Both the position numbers and the translations under genes were made by a program. A stretch of 1,086 nt of DNA from Escherichia coli (GTDB taxonomy: Bacteria > Pseudomonadota > Gammaproteobacteria > Enterobacterales > Enterobacteriaceae): the NCBI RefSeq assembly GCF_003334815.1, contig NZ_QOWO01000107.1; one strand, written 5' to 3'. Positions 1-911 of this stretch are shown here, in pieces. How positions within the stretch are numbered: position 1 is the first letter of the stretch; every line of letters starts with the position of its first letter. The notes below the pieces were generated by a model. That model saw only the letters and a program-made list of their open reading frames with translations. It was not told the DNA's origin and ran no database searches.

Positions 1-68
1 TTCGCCAGGAACGACCGGAACGCGGCATCATGCGGCGTGGGCGTTGTGGTGTTTTTCTTCTTACTCAC
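1..68 (-). CDS. hypothetical protein, 5' end only (continues past the left window edge); N-terminus MSKKKNTTTPTPHDAAFRSFLA...
   Basis: GTG start at 68..66 preceded by GGAGG (77..73) with a 4-nt spacer; the start overlaps the TGA stop (67..65) of the upstream gene as GTGA; frame stays open to the window edge (22 codons); the initiation region and first ~19 codons are homologous to the start of the 65..580 gene. Not in the ORF track because it is truncated by the window. Confidence 0.5.
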   Translation of the reverse strand, partial: MSKKKNTTTPTPHDAAFRSFLA

Positions 69-77
69 GGTTCCTCC
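51..77. repeat. 27-bp direct repeat, copy 1 (gtttttcttcttactcacggttcctcc); on the minus strand this is the SD plus GTG start of the 1..68 gene
   Basis: 25 of 27 nt identical to 563-589; weaker homology continues into both downstream coding regions. Confidence 0.8.
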
Positions 78-580
78 ATCAAATCAGCAGCATCGCAGCA
101 ATCATCGTCCAAATCCCCACAACCAAGAGGACAGCAATTGCGATCAAAGCCGTGACAACAATAGCCACGTTCTGCGTCACGGCGTATTTCTTCTGCAATC
201 TCTTCAGCGGAAAGGTAATCAAACTCCTCACGGGCCAGTTCCAGGACCAGCAGATGTTGTTCTGTCGGCAATGTAGACACAAAATTATCAATAGCAGCAC
301 TCAAACGTCGCTGATATAGCTCATAAACAAGACCACAACGGTGCATTAGTTCTTCGGATAATAGTTCCAGTTTTGAGCGAACGCTGTCAGCATTGAAAGT
401 GACTTCATCAGATGACATCTGAAAATCTTTGTCAGTGTCAAAACAAGACTTCATTTTTATCTCCTGCCCGTCCGGGCCCTGAATGAAAGAAAACCTGTTT
501 CCCTTCTCTGTTTTTTTATGGAACAGGAGGAATCCGGTACCATGCGACATAGACGTCATGATGTTTTTCATCTTGCTCAC
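65..580 (-). CDS. hypothetical acidic protein, 171 aa from GTG at 580 (alternative internal ATG at 454 would give 129 aa); Cys-rich C-terminal tail GYCCHGFDRNCCPLGCGDLDDDCCDAADLMEEP; no family recognised
   Basis: Long open frame (part of the 65..676 track ORF); GGAGG at 589..585 then 4 nt then GTG at 580..578; this initiation region is duplicated at the next gene; CTG/GAA/CGT-rich codon usage; roughly 34 Asp+Glu against 19 Lys+Arg by my count; stop TGA at 67..65. The track start at 676 is rejected: it has no SD and overlaps the upstream gene. Confidence 0.6.
   Translation of the reverse strand: MSKMKNIMTSMSHGTGFLLFHKKTEKGNRFSFIQGPDGQEIKMKSCFDTDKDFQMSSDEVTFNADSVRSKLELLSEELMHRCGLVYELYQRRLSAAIDNFVSTLPTEQHLLVLELAREEFDYLSAEEIAEEIRRDAERGYCCHGFDRNCCPLGCGDLDDDCCDAADLMEEP
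73..77 (-). promoter_or_regulatory. Shine-Dalgarno (GGAGG) for the 1..68 gene, embedded in the last codons (M-E-E-P) of the upstream gene
   Basis: GGAGG then AACC then GTG, with the GTG overlapping the upstream TGA as GTGA. Confidence 0.55.
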
Positions 581-589
581 GGTTCCTCC
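563..589. repeat. 27-bp direct repeat, copy 2 (gtttttcatcttgctcacggttcctcc); on the minus strand this is the SD plus GTG start of the 65..580 gene
   Basis: 25 of 27 nt identical to 51-77; differences at repeat positions 8 and 13. Confidence 0.8.
585..589 (-). promoter_or_regulatory. Shine-Dalgarno (GGAGG) for the 65..580 gene
   Basis: GGAGG then AACC then GTG; sits inside the duplicated 27-bp element. Confidence 0.55.
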
Positions 590-644
590 TGGTAAAGTAC
601 CTGAACATATCCTGCCACCTGCACAGACAGACGGCAGGGGGTAA

Positions 645-911
645 TCAGTGGCAGACCCGTTCAATTTCAAGCGCACGGAGCAGGTGCCCCCACTCGCTGA
701 CTTTCATGGCGGGGATACGCACCCGCTTCCGCTCACTGCAGCGTCTGGCGATATGACCGCCCATCGCCAGGACGTCCGGGTTAATCTCATCCGGTGCCAG
801 TTCCTGGCGTCTGAAGCGGGTATGGCGGTGCAGGGGTTTGTTCTCCCGCAGGCACTCTTCACGCAGACGCTTTACATATTCAGCCGTTGCAAAGATAATT
901 GATGGTCTCAT
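645..911 (-). CDS. hypothetical small basic protein, 88 aa (MRPSIIFATAEYVKRLREECLRENKPLHRHTRFRRQ...ERVCH); Arg-rich, possibly nucleic-acid binding; identity unknown
   Basis: ATG at 911..909 preceded by GGAG (923..920) with an 8-nt spacer; stop TGA at 647..645; Leu codons are CTG-dominated on this strand (6 of 8) versus CTC-dominated on the mirror plus-strand ORF; about 15 Arg + 4 Lys against 12 Asp/Glu. The track extends this ORF to 1007 (120 aa), but the extension crosses the terminator hairpin and uses rare AGG/ATA/CGG codons. Confidence 0.5.
   Translation of the reverse strand: MRPSIIFATAEYVKRLREECLRENKPLHRHTRFRRQELAPDEINPDVLAMGGHIARRCSERKRVRIPAMKVSEWGHLLRALEIERVCH

Follow-up and report, generated by a model that had tools for sequence, protein, structure and literature searches.

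Duplication of the rpn translation-initiation region around a ccgAII-like gene in IncI-complex plasmids of Escherichia coli: a probable recombination scar

Introduction

The Rpn family of recombination-promoting nucleases (PMC5350276) forms RpnL/RpnS toxin–antitoxin antiphage systems, and a plasmid-borne member, RpnP2, has been tested (Zhong et al. 2023, PMC10327210). At rpn loci, part of rpn is duplicated next door as rpnS; the duplicated part is the 3′ antitoxin domain, which yields a functional protein (PMC10327210). Repeats have also been described in plasmid leading regions. In the sections on which we draw, the report on pO26-CRL125 (IncI1/IncZ) put leading-region variation down to crossovers at repeats, which are approximately 0.2–0.5 kb long and contain Frpo (Venturini et al. 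2013, PMC3817090). The CUP (conserved upstream) repeats of IncN plasmids, which control ccg genes, are ArdK-binding repeats of the promoter region that are present in many copies (Delver and Belogurov 1997, as cited in PMC6289460).

The window, the whole stretch of 1,086 nt analyzed here, belongs to the leading region of E. coli plasmids of the IncI complex, and many complete E. coli plasmids contain it at 100% identity. In the window, a 70-nt sequence that includes the start of rpn occurs twice, on either side of a ccgAII-like gene. The same locus with the same genes is carried by pO26-CRL125, in which the middle gene was named ccgAII, but the sections of that report drawn on here do not mention 70-nt copies of the rpn start on either side of ccgAII (PMC3817090). 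The arrangement resembles the CUP repeats, as outlined in the citing paper, in that the 5′ sequence recurs in front of several leading-region genes, among them ccgAII, the homologue of the inserted gene. It differs from them in that the similarity starts at the Shine-Dalgarno (SD) sequence and continues into the coding sequence, that the matches further upstream are 16/43 (positions 78–120 against 590–632, which is chance level) and 3/13, and that only two copies exist in 17 kb. No ardK was annotated in this 17-kb context. As at other rpn loci, part of rpn is also duplicated next door in the form of a 73-aa ORF; in contrast to the known 3′ duplications, the repeat described here consists of the 5′ end and is apparently non-coding. 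The genes and their adjacency are already in the literature; no description of the 70-nt duplication, the junction map, or the two frame variants was found in our searches.

Results

In plasmid pE2863-1, the genes are ordered ssb, a parB-like gene, psiB, psiA, ardA, a 144-aa gene, an 88-aa gene, a 129-aa gene, and an Rpn-family gene, and past rpn there are a 73-aa ORF, a helix-turn-helix (HTH) gene on the opposite strand, and relaxase genes. All genes of the window are located on the minus strand. The 88-aa gene (645–911, minus strand; PGAP CDS) was the fixed left neighbour in both the short and long alleles described below, and was present in all alleles fetched. Its product gave no family match in profile scans against Pfam/NCBIfam, PHROGs, and PADLOC. 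The downstream gene was annotated by PGAP as an Rpn family recombination-promoting nuclease, with its 5′ end in the window (1–68, minus strand) and the remainder running past it. The encoded protein matched the Rpn family (TIGR01784/PF04754) along its full length, with TIGR01784 reaching 177.4 bits over residues 12–306 where the curated cut-off is 52.1, and it matched phrog_3300 with an E value of 8.5e-104.

Several further features of the locus were observed. The length of rpn ranged from 891 to 942 nt across plasmids and appeared to track the repeat number. The 73-aa ORF, located directly after rpn and just past the left end of the window (L001 9945–10166), was an RpnS-like paralogue; it shared 52% identity with Rpn residues 244–306 and lacked the EGRM four-residue repeats. 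Both the rpnS-like ORF and the varying length of rpn match the description of other rpn loci by the Storz laboratory. A GC-rich 12-bp hairpin (611–638, minus strand), forming a stable stem in the RNA fold, was located just past the stop codon of the 88-aa gene. It was present in all alleles, conserved with a few substitutions in short and long ones, and was not accompanied by a T-run. The repeat finder reported an inverted partial copy of it 724 nt upstream, inside the 144-aa gene. Another GC-rich hairpin (979–997, GCAGGG...CCCTGC), between the 144-aa and 88-aa genes, was flanked by an A-run/T-run at 998–1004. It was more like an intrinsic terminator of the opposite direction, because the seven A residues on the gene strand are seven T residues on the opposite strand. 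No RNA family was found in the window by Rfam, and scanning for promoters and terminators yielded no feature peculiar to the repeat.

A sequence-only reading of the window had noted that 27 bp around the start of an ORF at 65–580 recur around the start of the next gene. This recurrence was confirmed, with 25/27 matches between positions 51–77 and 563–589. The homology that it described in the coding part was also recovered at the same 512-nt offset, with 40/57 matches between 12–68 and 524–580 (the first 57 coding nt), and the N-termini that it quoted for both genes were correct. Its judgement that the similarity was far above chance agreed with shuffling: ungapped alignment scored 22 at best, compared with 8.0 ± 0.9 for shuffled sequences (maximum 13, n = 200), and gapped local alignment of the two copies gave a score of 59 against 17.7 ± 2.3 (maximum 33, 300 shuffles). 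The gapped alignment bounded the repeat at L001 8498–8567 and 9010–9079, which correspond to window positions 520–589 and 8–77. The same pair was found independently by a repeat finder (70 nt, 76% identity, spacing of 512 nt). A degenerate form of the 27-mer occurred exactly twice in the 17-kb plasmid context, where no occurrence was expected.

The downstream copy, R2 (8–77, minus strand), is the working initiation region of rpn and contains the SD sequence GGAGG, the GTG codon at 68–66 that PGAP gave as the CDS start, and the first ~19 codons (MSKKKNTTTPTPHDAAFRSF...). The upstream copy, R1 (520–589, minus strand), contains the same SD sequence GGAGG, a GTG codon at 580–578, and ~17 decayed rpn codons (MSKMKNIMTSMSHGTGF). 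The minus-strand ORF at 65–580 does exist in the window, nested in an open frame that extends over 65–676, and its GTG codon was neither the annotated start nor conserved. The duplicated initiation region and N-terminal codons reported earlier were thus upheld, but not their interpretation as tandem paralogs, which is discussed below.

Most related plasmids were ~500–510 bp shorter across the locus. In these short alleles (L002, L003, L004, and L013) the segment was absent, and rpn started 64 nt past the 88-aa gene. R1 is located at exactly this position in the long alleles, and the upstream copy was therefore taken to be a relic of an rpn start. The two structures can be written as U-R-rpn for the short allele and U-R1-X-R2-rpn for the long allele. 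Long alleles accounted for 417 of the 1431 E. coli plasmid records matching the window (at least 80% of the window covered) and for 508 of 2717 records in PLSDB. The sequence of R2 was nearly identical between short and long alleles, and alignment of the short alleles with R1 gave ~80% up to L001 8558.

The long alleles occurred in two frame variants. In type A, which includes the window, GTG 580 was in frame with ATG 454. This type was the minority, with 47 of ~510 long-allele PLSDB records (at least 99% protein identity). In type B, represented by 6/6 other long alleles fetched (L005, L006, and L009–L012), a 14-nt deletion in the relic put GTG 580 out of frame, and the GTG codon opened a 42-codon out-of-frame ORF that ended 14 nt past the ATG codon. 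Between types A and B, the relic tail and the leader that follows it diverged by 15–17% in addition to the indel (15% for the leader), whereas the divergence was 5% for the ccgAII-like ORF, 6% for the 88-aa gene, and 1.5% for rpn. The relic tail and leader are therefore not evolving like coding sequence.

The rpn homology of R1 ended at L001 8558, at about codon 17, and an IncX1-like leader started at L001 8568, so that the junction was mapped to within 10 nt. The leader (450–519, minus strand; L001 8568–8637) is a grafted 5′ module of 70 nt with its own SD sequence (AGGAG) and ATG 454. It showed 82% identity to IncX1 plasmids (L014 6001–6073 and L016 5001–5073), in which it is located directly upstream of an unrelated 109-aa gene. 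Here, for a second time, unrelated leading-region genes have a 5′ leader/start module in common. DNA homology to stand-alone ccgAII genes covered L001 8687–8985. Four pieces made up the insert, namely the 70-nt leader, a stretch of ~50 nt with no assigned origin, the core of the CcgAII family, and a short tail, and the insert is thus itself a mosaic of at least three origins. The ccgAII-like ORF was the only ORF in the insert. Direct repeats flanking an inserted segment recall a transposon target-site duplication, but the repeats here are 70 nt at only 76% identity, the insert is mosaic, and neither terminal inverted repeats nor a transposase bound it. A 36-nt insertion that would extend the homology between R1 and rpn (SFIQGPD against SFLANPD) was rejected, as this stretch is the IncX1-like leader.

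Other mosaics were found at the same genes. Two independent ENA metagenome contigs (L017 and L018) contained the 5′ part of an IncFIA-type ccgAII followed by the IncI tail and rpn, without R1. Their upstream context and ccgAII 5′ part were nearly identical to the IncFIA-plasmid homologue, and the hybrid gene points to recombination inside the ccgAII ORF or possibly to an assembly chimera. In an IncI2 plasmid (pPG20180057.1-IncI2; L015 2501–2537), an rpn-start stub of 37 nt (GGAGGAACCGTGAGCGAGAAGAAAAACACCACGACGC) was located where an 80-aa HTH gene ends, likewise with ...EEP and a stop, and no rpn or other rpn remnants were found within 2.5 kb of it. The CTCACC preceding the SD sequence of the short alleles is common to this independent stub, and the short-type 5′ region therefore looks ancestral.

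The gene between the two copies (65–454, minus strand; PGAP CDS WP_001317525.1) encodes an acidic, Cys-rich protein of 129 aa with a pI of 4.2 and nine cysteines. In tblastn comparisons, its product showed 48.5% identity to IncN CcgAII over residues 13–109 and 71% identity to an ORF of an IncFIA plasmid. These stand-alone homologues on IncN and IncFIA plasmids do not adjoin rpn. The CcgAII-family core in the ORF was recognized as CGLxYELYQRRLS ... EFDYL ... C-x-HG ... CCPLGCGD, and 14 columns were invariant over 22 family sequences, including Cys99, His101, Gly102, Cys108, Pro109, and Gly113. The conserved C-x-HG...CCPxGCG motif suggests that the protein may bind metal. The core ended with CCPLGCGDL(DD), and the last ~12 codons (DDCCDAADLMEEP) ran past the usual C-terminus of the family into the SD sequence of rpn. 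The TGA stop codon (67–65) overlapped the GTG codon of rpn (68–66) as GTGA.

The AF2 model of the protein (pLDDT of 78.5) predicted a core of four helices and, after it, a segment rich in Cys and His. No relatives of this model were found in the PDB (best E value of 4.6), and therefore no function could be assigned from it. Scans of the ORF against Pfam, NCBIfam, and PHROGs gave no family. PADLOC gave a weak and partial match to the N-terminus of a type III-A retron PRTase (residues 30–93, E value of 6e-5, 20.5 bits), which was distrusted, and the name cobalamin biosynthesis protein CbiX, given to this protein in some GenBank records, was backed by no family search. Published plasmid annotations of IncN or IncI ccgAII, including the relevant entries of PMC3817090, read "antirestriction" or "prevention of RecA overproduction"; no experimental support for these labels was traced.

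The start of the ccgAII-like gene is most likely ATG 454, as judged from four features. PGAP placed the start at ATG 454 and not at GTG 580, the 42 codons between the two positions are matched by nothing in the CcgAII family, the SD sequence AGGAG is located 7 nt upstream of ATG 454, and the frame from GTG 580 is broken in type B. The sequence-only reading had counted disuse of the GTG at 580 against its own interpretation, and the PGAP start, the family lacking the extension, and the type-B frame break indirectly support such disuse. The usual start Met of the family aligned with Met13 of the 129-aa form, and 60 database homologues were mostly 101–106 aa long; initiation at this family-typical Met, 12 codons further in, is possibly an alternative. 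N-terminally extended versions of 171 aa (P0001) and 176 aa (P0002) were present in protein collections, where they derive from longest-ORF callers.

Discussion

The repeat is very probably a recombination scar, formed when a ccgAII cassette recombined into the 5′ end of rpn in a mosaic leading region. The common short allele, with an rpn gene of the RpnL/RpnS antiphage type 64 nt past the 88-aa gene, would represent the initial state. In the long allele, a composite cassette of ~500 bp would have been placed after approximately codon 17 of rpn; downstream of it, the ribosome-binding site, GTG codon, and first codons of rpn occur a second time and in intact form. R2 now initiates rpn, and the overlapping GTGA, a classic coupling arrangement, would couple it translationally to the ccgAII-like gene, which would itself be translated from its own SD sequence and ATG 454. 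R1, with GTG 580, would have been left behind as a relic, presumably silent, whose rpn codons have since decayed. We infer recombination with a donor in which ccgAII already preceded an rpn start; of the two exchange points, one would be a crossover inside rpn or close to it, and the other an illegitimate junction near codon 17–20. Such a mechanism is plausible because other mosaics exist at the same genes, namely L017/L018, the IncI2 stub, and the duplicated 3′ end of rpn. No donor plasmid with an intact gene starting with an R1-type sequence was found in PLSDB. The polarity from short to long rests on parsimony and not on a rooted phylogeny. An older rpn split by insertion into a 5′ relic and a 3′ copy was also considered and rejected, as the short alleles likewise carry the rpnS-like ORF downstream.

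The state of R1 bears on whether the upstream copy still has a role. The TPHD motif of Rpn was destroyed in R1, reading MSHG in type A and VLHG in type B, and no nuclease domain continued from it. A junction segment (524–537, minus strand), the 14 nt deleted in type B, contains a perfect anti-SD sequence (UUCCUCCUG; 524–536) that was predicted to pair with the SD sequence of R1. The R1 hairpin, in which SD and GTG were buried, was predicted at −24.1 kcal/mol in type A (z of −2.66; 3/200 shuffles as stable) and at −21.8 kcal/mol in type B (z of −2.34). The functional rpn starts were predicted to be unstructured (z of +0.64 for R2, and −0.90). Only the local R1 hairpins were significant, and the fold of the whole leader RNA was not (z of −1.76). 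Among the differences between the R1 flanks (520–602) and the ancestral-type rpn 5′ region, 15/16 mismatches were transitions, with C to T changes of the coding strand dominating, and the spectrum of decay was thus strongly biased.

The 27-nt core of R1, from the SD sequence to codon 6, had 2/27 mismatches against 14/38 in its flanks (Fisher p = 0.008), and it showed 0/27 differences between types A and B. Pure neutral decay does not predict such conservation, and selection or gene conversion may therefore act on R1. Residual function, in the form of a uORF with coupling to the start of the ccgAII-like gene, could explain the conservation, as could gene conversion with R2 or chance. If ribosomes still initiated at R1, the uORF of type B or the in-frame extension of type A would modulate how strongly the ccgAII-like gene is translated, either by coupling or by opening and closing the leader structure. 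The reading frames are compatible with coupling, since the type-B uORF stops 14 nt past the ATG codon and the type-A frame continues without a stop, and IncI2 plasmids that lack rpn also keep the core as a stub. However, the start of R1 is predicted to be structured in both types while active rpn starts are open, both the peptide sequence and the frame are non-conserved, absence of differences over 27 nt is not significant at ~6% divergence, and the ccgAII-like gene has a good SD sequence of its own. A functional 5′ element is a rather unlikely reading, although the best placed of the alternatives. The shared 5′ regulatory element that the sequence-only reading had offered as its second option held in so far as both copies are the same rpn start region; with the upstream copy being a decaying relic, it is only weakly supported.

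The opposite direction of events is somewhat less probable still. In that case the long allele would be ancestral, the short alleles would have arisen by deletion between the direct repeats, and the repeat would serve as the substrate of a recurrent switch in which ccgAII is lost. The direct repeats, with an identical core of 14 nt, do flank exactly the segment that is missing in the short alleles. Fourteen nucleotides of identity make a poor substrate for RecA. The product of rpn is a recombination-promoting nuclease (PMC5350276), which fits a switch of this kind. However, the sequence preceding the SD is ACATCTCACC in the short alleles and GGTACTTTACC in the R1 flank, and 5/13 positions differ. 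Because of this difference, extant short alleles are not recent R1 × R2 deletion products of known long alleles. In addition, this reading would still need the 5′ end of rpn to have been duplicated beforehand to make R1.

The sequence-only reading had favoured tandem paralogs, with the ORF at 65–580 and the downstream gene being one duplicated gene that has since diverged. The SD sequence, the GTG codon, and ~17–19 N-terminal codons are indeed common to both. In the full-length protein alignment it had called for, BLASTP of the 171-aa ORF against the 308-aa Rpn gave nothing past the first ~17 residues, and extension beyond residues 1–17 was gapped and non-significant (E value of 0.037). Profile scans gave no Rpn match for the middle ORF, and the two genes belong to unrelated families, CcgAII and Rpn (TIGR01784). 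The common N-terminus lies outside the core of the CcgAII family and outside the annotated CDS, and its frame is broken in the type-B alleles. Descent from one family was thereby refuted and is very improbable. The similarity ends within ~20 codons, which the same reading had named as the sign of a recombination junction, and this therefore points to such a junction. That the repeat is an artefact of assembly or annotation, for which nothing speaks except its unusual look, is practically excluded because many complete plasmids, assembled independently, contain the same 1086-nt window without a difference, and 417 records contain the long structure.

A broader and distinctly speculative reading is that gene starts of leading regions, consisting of the SD sequence and the first 6–17 codons, act as portable "docking" modules of homology by which plasmids of different incompatibility groups would exchange genes that are expressed early, possibly aided by Rpn. 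The rpn start was found in three contexts: as a functional start, as a relic in the long alleles of IncI, and as a stub in IncI2, where rpn is lacking. These contexts, together with the ccgAII leader in front of an unrelated IncX1 gene and the conserved core of R1, are hints in this direction, although such docking is improbable at present. In this reading, R1 might be retained for repeated use in gene capture or because its uORF still works.

With regard to annotation, the 171-aa "gene" starting at GTG 580 is best regarded as a longest-ORF artefact, and the product is probably a CcgAII-family protein of 129 aa, or possibly 117 aa. The finding is largely one of ordinary plasmid mosaicism. It gives a view at base-pair level of how a candidate early-establishment or anti-restriction gene may have been wired in front of a toxic antiphage nuclease and become translationally coupled to it, and it shows gene starts recurring as breakpoints in the mosaics of plasmid leading regions. 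If the relic start were functional or recombinogenic, the locus would provide a small and concrete model of gene exchange in leading regions.
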